A stretch of 23,084 nt of DNA, the filler included, from Barthelona sp. PAP020 (taxonomy: Eukaryota), in the NCBI GenBank assembly GCA_040182905.1. It is 20 parts of 20 records of this genome, joined end to end, with 100 filler letters (N's around TTAATTAATTAA, not from the genome) between each part and the next. Parts side by side here need not be neighbours in the genome. Positions count along the whole stretch, not along the records: positions 1 to 1,115 come from JARQWU010001015.1; 19 more parts are not named here. One strand, written 5' to 3'. The notes beneath the pieces were generated by a model. The model did not search any database and had not been told where the DNA came from. It worked only from the letters and a program-made list of their open reading frames with translations. Each line of letters starts with the position of its first letter. Positions within the stretch are counted from its first letter, which is position 1. Made by a program: the position numbers and the translations under genes. Below, in pieces: positions 830 to 21,750 of the stretch.

Positions 830-903
830 TCCTCTCTAGCTCAGTACGGTAGAGTTTCCGGCTTTTAACCGGACGGTCGCGGGTTCGAGCCCCGTGGGAG
901 GAG
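830..903 (+). tRNA. tRNA-Lys (anticodon TTT)
   Basis: Acceptor TCCTCTC/GGGAGGA with discriminator G; D arm GCTC/GAGT; anticodon arm TCCGG-CTTTTAA-CCGGA; T arm GCGGG-TTCGAGC-CCCGT. No encoded CCA. Confidence 0.96.
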
Positions 904-930: not shown

Positions 931-942
931 AGGATCGAGTCT
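931..942 (+). promoter_or_regulatory. Extragenic downstream B-box-like element AGGATCGAGTCT (tRNA-Lys)
   Basis: GATCGAGTC matches the B-box consensus GWTCRANNC. It lies 27 nt after the discriminator, with identical sequence and spacing at the other two tRNAs. Confidence 0.85.
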
Positions 943-966: not shown

Positions 967-1115
967 TTCACACGACAATTCACGTTAGGTACAAGAAAAG
1001 GTATACGAAAGCTTTCACTCGACAAAATAATAAACATTTAATAAAAGCTTTTACTGTTCAAGGTTAGAGTTTGGGTTACTTGTCACTGGTCTGTTGTGCG
1101 TAGATTGGTTCAGAA
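967..1115 (+). mobile_element. Stack of three TTCAC-initiated repeat units (12-nt C stub, 35-nt B unit, diverged long C unit running off the contig)
   Basis: TTCAC at 967, 979 and 1014. The B unit TTCACGTTAGGTACAAGAAAAGGTATACGAAAGCTTT is identical to the minus-strand copy ending at 8481. 1014-1115 aligns with 21111-21212. Confidence 0.75.
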
Positions 1116-4339: not shown

Positions 4340-4720
4340 TGCAAAGCGACGGATTTCATGCAAATAGACAATATAAATGTGTTTAAAGTTTCTTCTTGCG
4401 ATTTCTGATATTGATGGAAATCAAAATTGACAGTGAAATGACAACATAGAATCATATGATTCAGAGTAATAAGGATACAAGTGTACATAGTAGGTTAACA
4501 AGGAATTACAAGGTTTCATCAAGGAAACCCAGGGAAGAACAATCAAAAGTTATTGGCAAGAAGGGAAAAGATTATCATTTATTTATTTAGATAATCGCCT
4601 CATCCACCTAAAGTATTTCTATTTTTTTTTAAGAGTGTTCTGAACCATCCACGCAAAACGACTCAGTTGCAAGTACCCCCAAACTCTAACCGAGAACAAT
4701 AAAGATCTTTATAAACATTT
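4340..4720 (-). mobile_element. C-family TTCAC element copy (terminus lost at contig end)
   Basis: 4631-4720 is nearly identical to 8073-8162 and to the reverse complement of about 21130-21219. The body aligns more loosely with 7770-8060, 20555-20766 and 21230-21423. Confidence 0.8.
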
Positions 4721-7542: not shown

Positions 7543-8181
7543 TTTTGAGCTGGGACAGCGAAATTTAAAGCATAAAATCATTCAAGTCGCACAGGTTTCA
7601 GAACACATGCAGAAAGAAAGTAAAAGTTTTCACCAGAACTCCTCCATCAACGTAGAGGGGAAATTTGGCAAGTATTGAAGAAAGAAAAATTTCCCCAAAA
7701 AAATTATAAACTTATCAAAAGTTTTATCCCAAAGTTTTGATTATTTTATTTACTGTTGTGATGTGTTCGTAGCAAAAGCGGATGGATTTCAGGCAAAAGA
7801 GAATATAAATGTGTCTAAGGTTTCTTCTTGCAATTTCTGATATTAATGTGTATTAAAATTGAAAAGCTCAAGTAATAATAAACGTAATCGGAGAATTCAA
7901 AGATTAAGGATACAAGTAAAAAGAATAGGTCAACAAAACAAAGAATATCAAAGTATTACCAAAAGAACATAAGTGGCGACATTTAAAGTGAATCAAGGGA
8001 CTAAAGGAAAGTATTTCACTTTTCTTTAAATACATGCCTCATCTAAACCCAAAGCATTTCCTTTTTTTTTAAAAGAGTGTTCTGAAGCATCCAGGCAAAA
8101 CGACTCAGTTGCAAGTACCCCCAAACTCTAACCGAGAACAATAAAGATCTTTATAAACATTTATTATTATTGTCGTGTGAA
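7543..8181 (-). mobile_element. Longest C-family TTCAC element copy (at least 640 nt), with a degenerate body
   Basis: Begins TTCACACGACAATAATAAT at 8181 on the minus strand. Has a conserved ~110-nt terminus, an A-run, then a body homologous to 4340-4620, 20555-20766, 21230-21423 and 19452-19580. Confidence 0.8.
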
Positions 8182-8445: not shown

Positions 8446-8547
8446 AAGCTTTCGTATACCTTTTCTTGTACCTAACGTGAAATTCCCCAACCCCAGTTAG
8501 TAAATATATATTAAAGCCTTTAATTTTGCCCTTTTGTCTAACGTGAA
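8446..8547 (-). mobile_element. Stack of two TTCAC units (A then B) downstream of tRNA-Leu
   Basis: Minus strand reads TTCACGTTAGACAAAAGGGCAAAATTAAAGGCTTTAAT...GGGGTTGGGGAAT from 8547, then TTCACGTTAGGTACAAG...GAAAGCTTTT from 8481. Confidence 0.75.
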
Positions 8548-8552
8548 ATGAG

Positions 8553-8564
8553 AGACTCGATCCT
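8553..8564 (-). promoter_or_regulatory. Extragenic downstream B-box-like element AGGATCGAGTCT (tRNA-Leu)
   Basis: Plus strand agactcgatcct; 27 nt after the discriminator at 8592. Confidence 0.85.
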
Positions 8565-8591
8565 CCGTTTCATTTTTTCCTTCAAAAAACT

Positions 8592-8674
8592 TGTATGAGA
8601 CGGGATTCGAACCCGCGCATCCGGAGATACCAGAGCCTTAATCTGGCGCCTTAGACCAACTTGGCTACCCATAC
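8592..8674 (-). tRNA. tRNA-Leu (anticodon AAG)
   Basis: Acceptor GTATGGG/CTCATAC with discriminator A; anticodon arm CCAGA-TTAAGGC-TCTGG; long variable arm; T arm GCGGG-TTCGAAT-CCCGT. Confidence 0.96.
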
Positions 8675-9563
8675 GAGGATTGATTACAAAAGAAAAATTG
8701 AACAAAAATTATCAACTTCGCAAAAAGTATCAAAGAAAATATTAAAATTATATTTTTAAAGAATTTGTATAACAATTTTTTTATTTAAAGTGTTCTAATT
8801 CTTCAACTAAAAGACAGCAAAATACCACGTTGGAACCACTTGACATTTTCATCCTATTTATCACCACAAGTAATTCACTTGAAATTAAGGCAAGATTTGA
8901 ACGTATTGCCTTACTAAGCACAATAAAGAAGAGTAAACCTTTCCTCAATCATAATAATGGGAATGCATCATATATCTTTTTCAGAGAAATCAATAAATTG
9001 TTTAATTGTGTCTTTTCAAGTTTTATTTTCAAAAGTGGAAATAAAAACTTTAAAATTTTACTTTTCTTTTAATAAAAGCGAAATTTCAGTCACTCAATTC
9101 CCCCTGGATTTTGATTGAAAAATTTGCCAAATTGTGTCTTCTGAGTCAAGATTCTTTGTAAATAAACATAGTTTCACAATTAAACCAAATTAGTTCATTT
9201 TGAAATGATCTTGTCTAAGAATGGTTTAACAATAAAATTTCTTTTGAAACTGTTCATTTTAAATAGTAAACAAAAGAGGAACACTGTTTAAGTTAATGGT
9301 TTCCCAAAAAATCATTTAAACCCTCTTTAAGTTACACAGCTAGTGACTAACTATTCCCAAAAGTAATATATAAAAACAATCAAACTGCGATTTATAAGGA
9401 AAGAAGAACTATTTACAAAGCATGAATTGGATAAACATGAAACCACAAACCCACCTTTCTAANNNNNNNNNNNNNNNNNNNNNNNNNNNNNNNNNNNNNN
9501 NNNNNNTTAATTAATTAANNNNNNNNNNNNNNNNNNNNNNNNNNNNNNNNNNNNNNNNNNNNA

Positions 9564-10788: not shown

Positions 10789-11793
10789 TTAATCATCATC
10801 ACTTTCATCAGCATTTTCATCAATATATTGATGCATATTACCACCATTCTTTTTATTAATGTCGACCAGATCCCAACATGTATTAATAACTAAGCCAAAG
10901 TCCATTTGATTCATATATACGCCGGAAGTAACAAATTGTCGTATTAGAGAACTTTTTGCCTTCACTAAAACAAGTGTTGAAATGAGATATCCTTGATTTT
11001 TGACCAATTCAATCAGTTGAGATTGAGAAACGTGACAAAATGTCACATCAACATCTCCTTTGGTTGATGCCTCTCCAGAATTTGCAACATTAATGTATAA
11101 TTTTCCAGACGATTCTTTATGTGCATCCCACAAATCAGAGGGCATATAATATTTGTTGAAAAATACATACATGTCGAATCCATTAACATTAATTTCTGGA
11201 CGATTTAAAAGCATCAAAGCAATATCCAAATGGCCATGATAGGCACTGATAGAAAATGGAGAATGCCTCTTAGAACCTCGCTTATTAACATCAGCACCAT
11301 GGTCCAACAACATTTTGATGATATCAAGATGTCCTTGTCTGCAACTGATGCACAAGGAAGAATATCCTGTGAAGCATAAGTTAACATCAGCACCATGAAT
11401 CAAAAGATATTTGACAATTTCAAAATATCCCAATTTGCAAGCAATATACAATGAAGAAGTACCAATATTGTTGCATGAATTAACATCTGCACCCATTTTT
11501 AGAAGGGTTTTAACAAAATCAAGATTGTTTTCTTGACAACAAACAAACAAGGGAGATTTTCCCAAATTGAGATCTATATCATAATTTTTCAATAAAAAGG
11601 TTGCCATATCAAATGAATGTTTTGAAATGCACCAACAAAATGGAGAAATACCATTTGCATCACATACGTTCACATCAGCACCATTCTTTAATAAAAGATG
11701 AATGATATCAAAATAACCAGACTGGCAACTGACACATAATGGATTAAACTTATTGTTAGGACTTATATTGACATCAGCACCATGGTCCAACAA
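10789..11793 (-). CDS. Ankyrin-repeat protein with a family-specific C-terminal domain, 5'-truncated
   Basis: About 6 repeats of SPL..SC..G..DI..MLL.HGADVN, then a tail ending CWDLVDINKKNGGNMHQYIDENADESDDD. Confidence 0.93.
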   Translation of the reverse strand: MLDHGADVNISPNNKFNPLCVSCQSGYFDIIHLLLKNGADVNVCDANGISPFCWCISKHSFDMATFLLKNYDIDLNLGKSPLFVCCQENNLDFVKTLLKMGADVNSCNNIGTSSLYIACKLGYFEIVKYLLIHGADVNLCFTGYSSLCISCRQGHLDIIKMLLDHGADVNKRGSKRHSPFSISAYHGHLDIALMLLNRPEINVNGFDMYVFFNKYYMPSDLWDAHKESSGKLYINVANSGEASTKGDVDVTFCHVSQSQLIELVKNQGYLISTLVLVKAKSSLIRQFVTSGVYMNQMDFGLVINTCWDLVDINKKNGGNMHQYIDENADESDDD

Positions 11794-11895: not shown

Positions 11896-12141
11896 GAGGC
11901 GGAACTCATTCGATTGTCAAGGGATGGTGGCTATGTATTGTCGAATCTTATGGCTTTGAATATTGATACTCAAGTCATAAGACAATTGGTAGCCGTAGGG
12001 ATATACATGAATGAAGAGGAGTATAACATGATTGTTGACACATGTTGGGATTTATCTGACATTAATGAAATGAAGGGTGGAAATATGCACTCATTTTTCA
12101 ATGAACAAAGTGATCATGAAAGTGATGAAGTTGATGATTGA
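11896..12141 (+). CDS. C-terminal domain of a paralog of the ankyrin family
   Basis: EAELIRLSRDGGYVLSNL...IRQLVAVGIYMN...TCWDLSDINEMKGGNMH aligns without gaps to the tail of 10789-11793. Confidence 0.88.
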   Translation, partial: EAELIRLSRDGGYVLSNLMALNIDTQVIRQLVAVGIYMNEEEYNMIVDTCWDLSDINEMKGGNMHSFFNEQSDHESDEVDD

Positions 12142-12264
12142 TTAGTTGGAAAAATGATCCAAAACATCATTTTAGGAATGCACTGAGAATTTTCTGTTCT
12201 AAAAATTATTTCTTTCATTTTCATTTGGCAGATGTTCCTTGGTATTTTTTTTATTGTTCTTTAA

Positions 12265-12936
12265 TTTGAGTTCAAATCCAACAGTTTTCGTTTCCATCAC
12301 AAGGTCTGTCAAATTTTGATTGATGATTGGGACATGAGAAACAGATTTTTGGATTTCTTTGAAGAAAATGAATTCAATGAGGCCATTCGTCGAGAACTAA
12401 GGGTTTTGACAAAGAATAGGTCTCCCAATATTGTCACTCTGAACCGCATTGTCTTTGTTGTTGATGAAGATTCAGATATCGTTGCCCTCGCTCTCGAGCT
12501 TGAGAAGGCTCCCATGGATCTTGAGCAGTATCTTAACGAGTACAATCCTGATAGAGCCACACTACTTTGGATATTTGAACAAGTATGTGCTGGTCTTCAC
12601 CAACTGCACGATCGTGATATTGTTTGGAGAGATGCAAAACCACAGAACATTTTGGTGTGGGTTGATGATGAGGACAAAGTGTCACGAGTGGCTCTCTGTG
12701 ACTTTGCAACAGCATATCAAACTGAAGGTACAATGTCCAGTGGTACTATGATACAGGGTACGGCTCTTTACATGGATCCAACATCATTAGTAAGCAGAAA
12801 TGTTGACTTTTCAATGGATATTTTTGCTTTGGGTAAATTACTGATTCGTATGTTTTATCCAACTCTTTTGGAAGAAAGCGTTATCACCATACAAAACCAC
12901 TTTGAAAATGCAGGTGATAAAACTGATGAACTCTAC
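12265..12936 (+). CDS. Divergent Ser/Thr protein kinase domain; N-lobe incomplete or atypical; 3'-truncated (first ATG at 12334)
   Basis: RRELRVL...PNIVTL, LHQLHDRDIVWRDAKPQNIL, LCDFA, GTALYMDP, DIFALG. In-frame TAA at 12262. Confidence 0.85.
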
Positions 12937-14177: not shown

Positions 14178-14300
14178 ATGTCAATCAACTATTGTTGGGA
14201 TTTGATTGACATCAATGAAAGGAATGGTGGTAATATGCGTCATTATATTGATGAAGAGATAGAAGATGACAGTGATGATGATGATGAGATTGATGATTAG
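14178..14300 (+). CDS. Extreme C-terminus of a third paralog of the ankyrin family
   Basis: Manual translation MSINYCWDLIDINERNGGNMRHYIDEEIEDDSDDDDEIDD*. Confidence 0.85.
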   Translation: MSINYCWDLIDINERNGGNMRHYIDEEIEDDSDDDDEIDD

Positions 14301-15351
14301 AAAGGTCTAACTTCACATTAAACTTCCTCTTTCATTCACTACAAAACTCAGACTCTTTGTTTAAAAAACAGAAAATACCTTATTGGACAATTCTTTTAAA
14401 AAGCAAAAGAGCAATTGCTGTATTGCATTGTGTTGTAACTGTTAAAGAGTTCATCATTAAATTTTCGTTGTGCCATTTAATAATGAAGGTAATGTGCTAC
14501 AAATCTTTTTTGGAGTGATCAAAACCAACCAATATTTCTATGTTAACCCCTTCAATTTTTAATTTTCAAAAAAGTAAGTCAGAACTTTAAAATTTTGCTT
14601 TTGCAAAAATACAAAAAAATCAGGGTCAGGAATTTTTTCCAAAGACACAACCTAAATTCACACAATGTACTTTCAGTCTGGATCTCACACCCTGTATTTT
14701 TCCGAAATTCACTAAAATGACTCTTTGGGTTTTTTTTCACTGTAAATAAGTTTATGTCACTACTGGAGCAAAATATAGGGTCACTTTTATCTTTTCTTAT
14801 TGTTACCATATCAATTATTGGAGTCCAATACAACAAGAACAAAAAATATTGATAATAAATGATGTTGCTTTTATTAGTTAAATTGAAGGTCGACACACTA
14901 ACAACATTGGAGACTCTCATTGAAGAAGTGAAAAAGGTTTCATCAATGGAAAAAAACTGGAAATTTGATTCCACATATCGCACTCTTGCAAGTTTAATTT
15001 GTGAATTTCGTGAGTGCAAATATGTCAACACCATCACTACATCAACAAATCTGCAAAATAAATTGGAACAATGTCTTTTGTTAAAAATATTCGAACAAAC
15101 ATCATCATGACAAACTTTCAGAATTGTGTGACATTTTGGCAATGTTTAAATCAATAGCGAAAGTTCAATTGGGTGCATTAATTCGAAAAAGAAGGTCTTA
15201 AGAAAGAATCAAAAACNNNNNNNNNNNNNNNNNNNNNNNNNNNNNNNNNNNNNNNNNNNNTTAATTAATTAANNNNNNNNNNNNNNNNNNNNNNNNNNNN
15301 NNNNNNNNNNNNNNNNCGGTTGACCAAAACAGCAAAGATACCATGGAGTAA

Positions 15352-15457
15352 TTTCCCCAACCCCAGTTAGTAAATATAAATTAAAGCCTTTAATTTTGCC
15401 CTTTCGTCTAACGTGAATTTACCCTTTCGTCCAACATGAAATGCCCTTTTGTTCAAA
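15352..15457 (-). mobile_element. Stack of A-type TTCAC units downstream of tRNA-Arg
   Basis: Minus strand: degenerate TTTGAACAAAAGGGCA, then TTCATGTTGGACGAAAGGGTAAA from 15440, then TTCACGTTAGACGAAAGGGC...GGGGTTGGGGAA from 15417, nearly identical to 8483-8547. Confidence 0.75.
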
Positions 15458-15511
15458 GTAAGCGCTATATCAGTATTTCAGAGATTGGTGCTGAATTTTT
15501 CCAAGTTTTAG

Positions 15512-15523
15512 AGACTCGATCCT
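15512..15523 (-). promoter_or_regulatory. Extragenic downstream B-box-like element AGGATCGAGTCT (tRNA-Arg)
   Basis: Plus strand agactcgatcct; 27 nt after the discriminator at 15551. Confidence 0.85.
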
Positions 15524-15550
15524 GTGGTAAAAAATTAAACTTTGTAAATT

Positions 15551-15624
15551 CGACCGTGAGAGGACTCGAACCCCTAACCTTCTGATCCGTAGTCAGATGC
15601 CCTGTCCAATTAGGCCACACGGTC
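15551..15624 (-). tRNA. tRNA-Arg (anticodon ACG)
   Basis: Acceptor GACCGTG/CACGGTC with discriminator G; anticodon arm TCTGA-CTACGGA-TCAGA; T arm AGGGG-TTCGAGT-CCTCT. Confidence 0.96.
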
Positions 15625-15699
15625 ATGAAAGGTTTTTATAAAGAATATTTCTAAATAAAATTTTTATTTTGAATAAAATTGAAAATGTAAGTGTGTTAA

Positions 15700-16110
15700 T
15701 TTTTTTCAAACCAAAAAACACTGTATGTATGAATAAGCAAAAAAATAATATTTATTTGATTAAAAAAATTTCAAATTTCATTAATTTATTAAAAATTTTA
15801 ATTTTTTTTAAGTGAAAAGTATAACCATAATTTTGTTTTTATTATACAAGAAAATAAAAGCAAAAATGTATTTATAATTTTTTTGGTCAAGTTGTTTCAC
15901 AACTATATTTTTATTTATAAAGAGTAAGCAATCAGAGAAAACTTATTTTATTAAATTTCAGCCACAAAAAATGTGTGACTTTAATAAAATCTTGCTCATC
16001 AAGTGTGAAAATTTTTGGAAAAAGTTTCCATTCCCATTCTTTTGTATTTTGGTAAAAAGTAAAATTTTAAAGTTTAAACTTTACTTGGAAAATCTAAAGT
16101 TTTATTAGAT
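15700..16110. repeat. Two F-family repeat copies in opposite orientations upstream of tRNA-Arg
   Basis: 15719-15771 (CACTGTATGTATGAATAAGC...TTTATTTGATTAAAAAAATTT) aligns with 336-390. The reverse complement of about 16003-16110 aligns with about 415-510. Confidence 0.65.
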
Positions 16111-16317
16111 ATTTATGAGGTATGAGTTGTTCAGTGAACAACGAAACGAGTTAGCTTAAGGTTTGGGGAAAACTCACGTGGATTCAGATGCCTAAGTAAC
16201 TTAAAAAAATTGGACCTAAAGGTGGTCAAGAAACAACAAATATTGGTCCAGTTGTGAAACAACTATATTTATTTACAAAGAAAGTAAACTCAGAAAACTC
16301 ATTCTAGCAAATTTCAG
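15883..16317 (+). repeat. Degenerate ~75-nt direct repeat, copies 360 nt apart
   Basis: TTGGTCAAGTTGTTTCACAACTATATTT...AAATTTCAG at 15883 versus TTGGTCCAGTTGTGAAACAACTATATTT...AAATTTCAG at 16243. Confidence 0.7.
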
Positions 16318-16450
16318 TCAAAATCCCAGGAGGGGAATTGAGGGACTGAANNNNNNNNNNNNNNNNNNNNNNNNNNNNNNNNNNNNNNNNNNNNTTAATT
16401 AATTAANNNNNNNNNNNNNNNNNNNNNNNNNNNNNNNNNNNNNNNNNNNN

Positions 16451-17582: not shown

Positions 17583-17789
17583 CACTTTTATTTTCCTGAT
17601 TGTCAATATCTTCAATTGATTCAACTTTGCCTTGTAATGTTGATTTTTTTTCATCAGGTGCAACATCAATTGCCCAAGATTCCTAAAGTTAGATTTGTGA
17701 ATTTTTTTTTGGATTACATTTAGATCATCATTAATATCAGCAGAATAAAAATCGTGGTCAAAATTATATGATTCTTTCGGAGAATCCAT
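17583..17789 (-). CDS. Possible N-terminus of a hypothetical protein
   Basis: MDSPKESYNFDHDFYSADINDDLNVIQKK..., open to the contig end; divergent from INO1. Confidence 0.45.
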
Positions 17790-18212: not shown

Positions 18213-18609
18213 ATGTTATTACACAAATATCACAGTCCCAGTGCGACTATTACCGAATCAACGATTGAAACCGTCTACAATTATGAACAGTTTGACTATT
18301 CATTTTATTTTTCTAACTTTTAGACCTGTTGTTACTGTTGAAAATAATGAGGCCACTGTTTCTTCTAAAACCACTGCTGTTCTCTTTAAAACAGATAAAG
18401 TTGTTCCCAAAACTGGTTTTATGATTGTTGGTCTTGGTGGTAACAATGGTACTACCCTTACTGGTGGTGTTTTGGCTAACAAGCACAATATTACCTGGAA
18501 CTCAAAGAAGGGTGAAATGAAATCTAATTTCTGGGGTTCTGTTTCTCAAAGCACTTGCATTCAATTGGGTTTGATTAATGGTGAACAAATTCTTCTTCCC
18601 ATGAAAAAT
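18213..18609 (+). CDS. INO1: myo-inositol-1-phosphate synthase, N-terminal part, two exons (18213-18289, 18324->18609)
   Basis: Exon 2 has VPKTGFMIVGLGGNNGTTLTGGVLANKHNITW...NFWGSVSQS. Exon 1 (MLLHKYHSPSATITESTIETVYNYEQ) resembles the INO1 N-terminus and joins in frame after splicing. Confidence 0.94.
18290..18323 (+). other. 34-nt spliceosomal intron in INO1
   Basis: GTTTGACTATTCATTTTATTTTTCTAACTTTTAG: GT...AG with branch motif CTAAC. Removal restores the frame (CA|A CCT). Confidence 0.85.
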
Positions 18610-18812: not shown

Positions 18813-19451
18813 AATATTCAAAATCGATTGATGTTGTTTTTGAGTAGTTTTAGAGTTTAAAACTAATATTTAGGTTCATCTTTTTGCTTGTTCTTTTTGA
18901 TTCTTTGATCATTCTGTTGAAAGCTGCAAAGATTCTTTTTTATCATTTTTATTTGGAGATACAGATATATTTTTTCATCAAATTTATAAAATGTTGGAAT
19001 GATGTAGAAAAAAAAAAAAGAGGGGTGTTTGGAAGCCTTTTATTTTTGGCGAATCGAAATTTTCCGATTCTTCCTTTTTCCCCCGAGGCACGGAACTTTT
19101 CCTTAACCTACCCCCAAATTTTTGACCTGCCATGGTGAATGCACGAATACTTGCACAATTAGGATAAATATTAAAGAGTTCTGAGCGTTAGGCTCTTTTG
19201 AGCAATTAGTAATGCAATATTTCACACTCCCCTCATAGAGCGTAGCTCTCCTACGAAAGCCTATGAAAGAATAGGTCTCAAAAAAGAGAGGTTCCTTTTA
19301 GGAACGCTGAACCCCTTGAAAAGAATAAATATTTAGGTTTATTATTTATTAATCAACTGAGTTTCCCAGTCTCTGATTTGGGAAAGTTCTGGAAAAGGTT
19401 CGTACAAGAAGAAAAAATTTGGAAATCTCTTTGTATGTATTTCTTTTTCTT

Positions 19452-19580
19452 TTTTGAGCTGGTACAGCGAAATTTTCAACATCTGAACATGTCCAACTCC
19501 TACAGGTCTCAATACTTGTACGTTAATAAATGAATCAGTTTTCAACCAGAACTCCATAAATGTGGAAGAGATATTATTGG
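19452..19580 (-). mobile_element. Degenerate distal body of a C-family element
   Basis: TTTTGAGCTGGTACAGCGAAATTT...ACAGGT...AGTTTTCAACCAGAACTCC aligns with 7543-7670. Confidence 0.6.
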
Positions 19581-20554: not shown

Positions 20555-20766
20555 AGCAAATGGGGAAGGATTTCACATAAAAGACAATATAAATGAATTT
20601 CTGGTATTAGTTGGTATCAAAATAAAAGCTCAAGTAGTAAAATGGAATTGTAAGAATTCTAAAATCAAGGATATAAGTAAATAAAACGGGTTAAGAAAGA
20701 ATATCAAAGTTTTTCAAAGAGAACATGAGTGGAAACATTTAAAGTGAATATAGGGGGTGAAGGAAA
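20555..20766 (-). mobile_element. C-family element body, interrupted by repeat D
   Basis: GGATTTCACATAAAAGACAATATAAATG...AAAAGCTCAAGTA...AAAGAATATCAAAGT...ACATTTAAAGTGAAT aligns with 7785-8010. Confidence 0.75.
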
Positions 20767-20954: not shown

Positions 20955-21060
20955 ATTTAAAATTTTCTTTCTTGTGGGATTATTAGCTTTATATGCAGGA
21001 GTATTTTGGTTAGTTCTTCCTTTGCGTCTTCTTTCGGTGAAATTTTTGTTGTTGCCAAAT
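20955..21060 (-). repeat. Terminus of young repeat 'E' (copy 2), abutting a TTCAC stack
   Basis: 105/106 identical to the reverse complement of 19625-19730. Confidence 0.85.
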
Positions 21061-21064
21061 AAAT

Positions 21065-21423
21065 TTCACTTGACAAAATTCACGTTAGACGAAAGGGCAA
21101 AATTAAAGGCTTCACACGACAATAATAATAAATGTTTATAAAGATCTTTATTGTCCTCGCTTAGAGTTTGGGGGTACTTGCAACTGAGTCGTTTTGCGTG
21201 GATGATTCAGAACACTCTAAAAAAAAAAAGAAATACTTTAGGTGTGGATGGGGCAGGTATTTAAATAAAAGTTTATTAATCTTTTCCTTCTTACCAATAG
21301 CTTTTGATTCTTCTTCCAAGGGTTTTCCTTGATAAAACCTTGTAATTCCTTGCTAACCAATTAGATTTCTATCAATAACAGAAATTGCAAGAAGAAACCT
21401 CAAACACGTTTATGTTGTCGTTT
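21065..21423 (+). mobile_element. Stack of three TTCAC units (14-nt C-type stub, 32-nt A unit, long C unit)
   Basis: TTCAC at 21065, 21079 and 21111. The A unit is identical to the start of the minus-strand copy at 15417. The C unit is nearly identical to 8073-8181 (-). Confidence 0.8.
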
Positions 21424-21750
21424 GGGAGAAATTATTCCTCCTTGCTATCAAAACTTCAGATGTAATTTGGGCAATTATATCATTATCTCATTGTTTGACA
21501 TTGATATATTTGTGATATCAAGAATAGTTGGTATCTTTCTTTCTTATTCCATATATTTGGAGAACAATAAATTTGTAATAAGTTGGACCCCATCATTTAA
21601 ACCTTGTAATGAAAAACAAAAAAATCAAAAAATTATTGCACATAAACTGAATGCAAAAAAAAAACATGACCTCAACAATTTCACATTTATAACACAAAAA
21701 AGAAAAACAACGTCTCCAAGACAATGTTTCTCTTAAAAGATGATTTGCAA

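Follow-up and report, generated by a model that had tools for sequence, protein, structure and literature searches.

Why does the same 12-nt sequence, AGGATCGAGTCT, stand at the same distance behind three tRNA genes that agree at only about half of their positions? The window is the whole stretch of DNA analyzed here, 23,084 nt in length. ARAGORN and Rfam called three tRNA genes in it (n = 3), and these lie on three of 20 separate contigs (1010–1115 nt, N linkers). The sequence-only reading had called them different isoacceptors on different contigs; the contigs do differ, but the Lys, Leu, and Arg genes are different isotypes, each for another amino acid, and not isoacceptors. We ask what the motif is, what could read it, and how it relates to the repeats that follow it.

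A constrained motif behind three tRNA genes

The three copies of AGGATCGAGTCT are exact matches on the tRNA sense strand (Table 1), and no further copy with up to two mismatches exists elsewhere in the window. Shuffled sequence is expected to give 0.03 matches at one mismatch or fewer, and three such matches were reached in 0 of 100 shuffles. The gap between the discriminator and the motif is 27 nt at all three genes, which places the motif 28–39 nt after the discriminator, and the distance from the internal B box is 50 nt in each case. The surrounding DNA is not conserved in this way. The 27-nt spacers do not align (pairwise identities of 11/27, 6/27, and 10/27), the 30 nt directly past the motif are identical at 7/30, 12/30, and 11/30 positions, and the tRNA genes themselves agree at about half of their aligned positions (37/74, 43/85, and 45/83). 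When 200,000 triplets of 100-nt segments were drawn at random from the window, the longest identical run at the same offset was 7 nt. At all three genes, the first run of four or more T residues is over before the motif starts, and at the Arg gene it ends only 5 nt ahead. The positions, fixed spacing, unrelated spacers, and location beyond the oligo-T run described in the sequence-only reading are thus all confirmed, and its proposed count of the 12-mer away from tRNA genes gives 0 within the window.

Chance placement is ruled out by the spacing, the shuffles, and the unalignable spacers. Recent tRNA duplication is ruled out because the tRNAs are only about 50% identical and the spacers cannot be aligned. 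These data show that AGGATCGAGTCT is a real, tightly constrained cis-element at the three genes. All three copies have T as the second base past the 12-mer (943–944, 8551–8552, and 15510–15511), which may mean a motif of 14 nt. The two bases that precede the 12-mer are common to the Lys and Leu copies.

Table 1. Positions of the tRNA genes, the 12-nt motif, and the downstream repeat modules in the window
Feature	Position	Strand	Details
tRNA-Lys(UUU), no encoded CCA	830..903	+	Internal B box 882-892; T5 run 907-911
External B-box-like 12-mer behind tRNA-Lys	931..942	+	Exact match, discriminator alignment, B-box scoring
Modules after Lys motif: 12-nt repeat end, 36-nt TTCACGTTAG unit, diverged end of long dispersed repeat	967..1115	+	Start 24 nt past 12-mer
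tRNA-Leu(AAG), no encoded CCA	8592..8674	-	Internal B box 8603-8613; T6 run 8584-8589
External B-box-like 12-mer behind tRNA-Leu	8553..8564	-	Exact match, discriminator alignment, B-box scoring
Modules after Leu motif: two TTCACGTTAG units	8446..8547	-	Start 5 nt past 12-mer
tRNA-Arg(ACG), no encoded CCA	15551..15624	-	Internal B box 15562-15572; T6 run 15529-15534
External B-box-like 12-mer behind tRNA-Arg	15512..15523	-	Exact match, discriminator alignment, B-box scoring
Modules after Arg motif: one degenerate and one intact unit	15352..15440	-	Start 71 nt past 12-mer

Relation of the motif to the B box

The idea that the motif is a B box was examined against the human tauB–DNA structure. 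The available text of PMC11811891 lists base-specific contacts to G66, T68, C69, and G70 on one strand and to G69, G74, and G75 on the other, and it equates C69 with tRNA C56 and G70 with tRNA G57. Our own mapping from these two equivalences puts the contacts at tRNA positions 53, 55, 56, 57, 61, and 62. On these human contacts, AGGATCGAGTCT keeps five of the six positions (G53, T55, C56, G57, C61, C62), with C62 replaced by T in all three copies. The internal B boxes of all three tRNAs keep six of six, and the loss of the C62 contact in every external copy argues against B-box function. Read in reverse, the motif keeps four of the six human positions, so the better reading is the one in the orientation of the internal box. 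T54 is changed to A, at a position absent from the human contacts listed. Positions 51, 59, and 60 differ from, or vary among, the internal boxes.

The B-box assignment of the sequence-only reading therefore stands in part. The relaxed form G(A/T)TCRANNC is matched, and the five tauB-read positions, the shared orientation, and the Dictyostelium precedent discussed below speak for it; the strict consensus GTTCRANNC, as quoted in the part of PMC5391098 available, is failed by the A at position 54.

The flanks contain no A-box-like site besides the tRNA's own, which shows that AGGATCGAGTCT is not part of an independent Pol III gene. Such a gene, or a tRNA-derived SINE, was rejected on three grounds: there is no A box of its own 30–60 bp upstream, the flanks are unalignable, and Rfam has no match at the motif or in the flanks. 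The att site of an integrative element, which would duplicate the host tRNA's own 3' end, was also rejected; three different tRNAs share one and the same motif, and none of their internal boxes is identical to it. A bacterial promoter scan of the window found nothing and has no bearing on Pol III.

A probable gene-external site for TFIIIC

The explanation that we favor, with moderate confidence, is that AGGATCGAGTCT is a gene-external B box for TFIIIC, similar to that of Dictyostelium but stricter in sequence and spacing. It is carried by all three tRNA genes and by no other site in the window at up to two mismatches, and the 27- and 50-nt spacings are fixed even though the spacers are unrelated and the tRNAs agree at only about half of their positions. 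AGGATCGAGTCT would be a binding site for the tauB module of TFIIIC, 50 bp beyond the internal B box. The DNA resolved under human tauB spans 35 bp according to the available text of PMC11811891; 50 bp just exceeds this length, so two modules could fit side by side with both boxes occupied. The external box would keep TFIIIC at the locus while Pol III crosses the internal box, and TFIIIC held there might help re-initiation or keep the 3' flank open. An open flank could allow short repeat modules to gather 5–71 nt further on, as TRE3 does in Dictyostelium.

Two properties of the motif go beyond this model. The flexible linker between tauA and tauB tolerates A-to-B spacings of 30–67 bp (PMC11811891, available text), so rigid spacing is not predicted by TFIIIC alone and would need something more to explain it, for example contact between two complexes on the DNA. 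The 12 invariant bases are also more than TFIIIC needs, which could be explained by another reader or by homogenization through gene conversion. A bolder proposal, which we advance tentatively and consider doubtful, is a three-box tRNA promoter in a metamonad lineage. It would consist of an A box, a B box, and an obligatory external box with a sequence of its own at a rigid 50-bp spacing. This promoter would have arisen independently of the Dictyostelium arrangement, would have a second tauB or a dedicated partner as its reader, and would determine where small mobile modules land.

The same properties could point to a reader other than TFIIIC: a DNA-binding protein peculiar to this lineage, perhaps dimeric, whose position is set relative to TFIIIC or the terminator and whose role is in termination, recycling, or the formation of a boundary. 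Invariance at all 12 nt, rigid spacing, and departure from the internal consensus at positions 54 and 62 in every copy are consistent with such a protein, and AGGATCGAGTCT is symmetric about a dyad at 8 of 12 positions, the pair A51 and T62 among them. However, the internal B boxes are equally symmetric (8–10 of 12), so the symmetry is not special, and the core of the motif is B-box-like and oriented as the internal box is. We consider this protein an unlikely reader of the motif.

Repeat modules downstream of the motif

Repeat modules follow the motif at all three loci. The units begin with TTCAC and end in a short palindrome, and modules have been shuffled between loci at 95–100% identity. 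One of the Leu-flank units is common to the Arg flank (95.6% over 68 nt), and the other is common to the Lys flank (100% over 37 nt). Of the five exact TTCACGTTAG units, four belong to the 3' flanks of the three tRNA genes, each in the tRNA sense, and the fifth is on a contig that lacks a tRNA gene. These units occur on four contigs, three of which carry the tRNA genes (hypergeometric P = 0.0035, calculated once the pattern was known). The bases between AGGATCGAGTCT and the first module are unrelated, and their number varies (24, 5, and 71 nt at the Lys, Leu, and Arg loci), which shows that the motif is not the end of the repeat modules.

The sequence-only reading had suggested that the motif could be a landing signal for the elements behind it. 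All three motifs have an enrichment of modules just behind them, the distance to the modules is variable, and no transposase or reverse transcriptase domain was found among the 11 window proteins scanned. AGGATCGAGTCT may mark where repeat modules land. The units resemble the TRE3 insertion pattern, and their mobility is putative.

The 12-mer could also belong to a mobile element that integrates a set distance past tRNA genes, either as its conserved end or as a mark of its target, with the downstream modules as its remains. The concentration of sense-oriented TTCACGTTAG units in the tRNA flanks, with its post hoc P value, and the near identity of modules between loci are compatible with this origin. 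However, the bases right past the 12-mer cannot be aligned, the variable start of the first module means that the motif is not contiguous with a shared element body, and the repeat copies at 8181 and 21079–21111 have no 12-mer in at least 100 nt upstream. The protein scan gave no enzyme for such an element either. An element end or target mark is quite unlikely. It is very improbable that AGGATCGAGTCT is a functionless relic of a tRNA T-arm whose copies gene conversion between the 3' flanks of tRNA genes has kept the same. The Lys and Leu copies do allow pairing at four of five T-stem positions (G-U counted) and the flank modules are shuffled at near identity, but the Arg copy pairs at two of five and folds at -0.2 kcal/mol, and conversion would not hold the exact spacing while the spacer and the following bases diverge.

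Two further repeat arrangements were observed. A dispersed repeat of at least 600 nt, apparently non-coding, is present in copies that are 71–91% identical (4343–4720, 7543–8181, 19437–19555, 20555–20766, 21057–21432, and 1014–1115); the six copies were translated and contain no open frame longer than 77 codons. Its end starts with a TTCAC unit bearing a 14-nt palindrome, and one TTCACGTTAG unit abuts it. At 967–1025 and 21065–21122, a 32–36-nt TTCACGTTAG unit lies between imperfect 12-nt direct repeats. This arrangement resembles either a small insertion that duplicated its target or related units in tandem.

Host lineage and contigs

The 11 proteins scanned, which include a kinesin, proteasome subunits, a CBF/Mak21 protein, a thymidylate kinase, and ankyrin-repeat proteins, are eukaryotic, and the GC content of the 20 window contigs is 25–38%. 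Among the best 120 of 7996 sequences scored, none is more than 75% identical to the proteasome ATPase. This ATPase pairs with Barthelona sp. PCE in a FastTree analysis of 117 sequences (support 0.998; records P0001 and P0003–P0005 left out) and in an IQ-TREE analysis of 38 chosen sequences (99.7/100), where the pair joins Paratrimastix at 96.7/96. The two proteins have 10 rare residues in common, compared to two or fewer for any other sequence. The window organism is likely a metamonad near barthelonids and far from amoebae, a placement that uses one gene with both branches long and a sequence set with no named fornicate. The tRNA contigs would belong to the same organism as the proteasome gene, based on their common assembly. 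The window kinesin is 100% identical to record P0124 over the 215 residues searched, with an exact run of 239 residues, so there is a protein set from this organism or one very close to it.

The three tRNA contigs have no open frame longer than 99 codons, and their upstream sides share further AT-rich repeats without fixed position or orientation (305–431, 537–653, 9015–9195, 15688–15811, and 15883–16350). The contig ends 18710–18812/20767–20854 and 19621–19730/20955–21064 overlap by 88–110 nt at 98–100% identity, indicating that repeats break the assembly at these sites. Intron-like stretches of 34–35 nt occur at 18290–18323 (+) and 17683–17717 (-), and in both the branch motif CTAAC lies exactly 5 nt upstream of the 3' end. 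A C-terminal domain with an acidic tail is found on three contigs (10792–11180 (-), 12002–12152 (+), and 14193–14303 (+)) and in one case is joined to ankyrin repeats; it is covered by no Pfam family, and an Atlas search gave no usable match. The protein kinase domain at 12265–12936 has WRDAKPQN at the position of HRD, the usual protein kinase motif.

Search for relatives and significance

The pattern of tRNA box plus motif had 0 matches in viral contigs, and the 30-nt repeat unit had 0 matches in metagenome contigs. A relaxed pattern of internal and external box matched 17 loci, all of 49–68% GC. Five of the 17 start in a tRNA, with gaps of 34, 37, 40, 42, and 43 and none at the expected 39, and the three loci with a gap of 39 have no tRNA. 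We read these 17 loci as chance. The literature searched, including the available parts of PMC13063481, PMC6673722, and PMC13437025, contained no tRNA external B box outside Dictyostelium, although supplements or subscription papers could hold one. The word "tRNA" does not occur in the main text, as available, of the barthelonid and skoliomonad genome paper (PMC11316075), and nothing relevant to Pol III control in metamonads was found in the literature searched.

The one precedent found for external tRNA B boxes, that of Dictyostelium, comes without a settled function in the available text of PMC3159450. The arrangement itself is already known, and what is new here is most likely the distant lineage, the invariant sequence, and the rigid spacing. 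If the TFIIIC reading of AGGATCGAGTCT is true, it would add a second case from a different eukaryotic supergroup, in which the sequence is invariant and the spacing exact to a single base, and the arrangement would have been selected repeatedly or be old. AGGATCGAGTCT would then bear on Pol III control in metamonads. It also makes it possible to test sharply whether having two TFIIIC sites at one gene matters.

Comparison with known systems

The S. cerevisiae U6 gene SNR6 has a B box beyond its terminator that acts as DNA and is the only B box of the gene. In contrast, each tRNA gene here also has an intact internal box. The motif resembles the solo B boxes of extra TFIIIC (ETC) sites in being a B box without an A box of its own outside the transcribed region; ETC sites are solitary, as described in the available part of PMC5391098, whereas every copy of AGGATCGAGTCT in the window accompanies a complete tRNA gene at a fixed distance.

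Dictyostelium discoideum is the closest parallel. The portion of PMC3159450 available, citing Siol et al. 2006, reports external B boxes for 66% of the tRNA genes of this amoeba, at about 41 bp downstream, and gives them a consensus distinct from that of the internal boxes. Both systems have a B-box-like motif a few tens of bases downstream of the tRNA gene and outside the mature RNA, here also beyond the first run of four or more T residues, and in both its consensus departs from the internal one. Both are AT-rich protists with repeats at tRNA 3' flanks, and in Dictyostelium TRE3 inserts 14–228 bp downstream of tRNA genes (PMC5006619, available text). The two systems also differ. The host here is likely a metamonad and not an amoebozoan. 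The motif follows three of three tRNA genes, counted in the window only, compared to 66% in the Dictyostelium genome, and the gap is exactly 27 nt compared to about 41 bp, a value for which the available Dictyostelium text gives no reference point or spread. The downstream repeats are short non-coding modules here and LINEs (TRE3) in Dictyostelium. Unlike the Dictyostelium boxes, those described here are an invariant 12-mer with A54 and T62.
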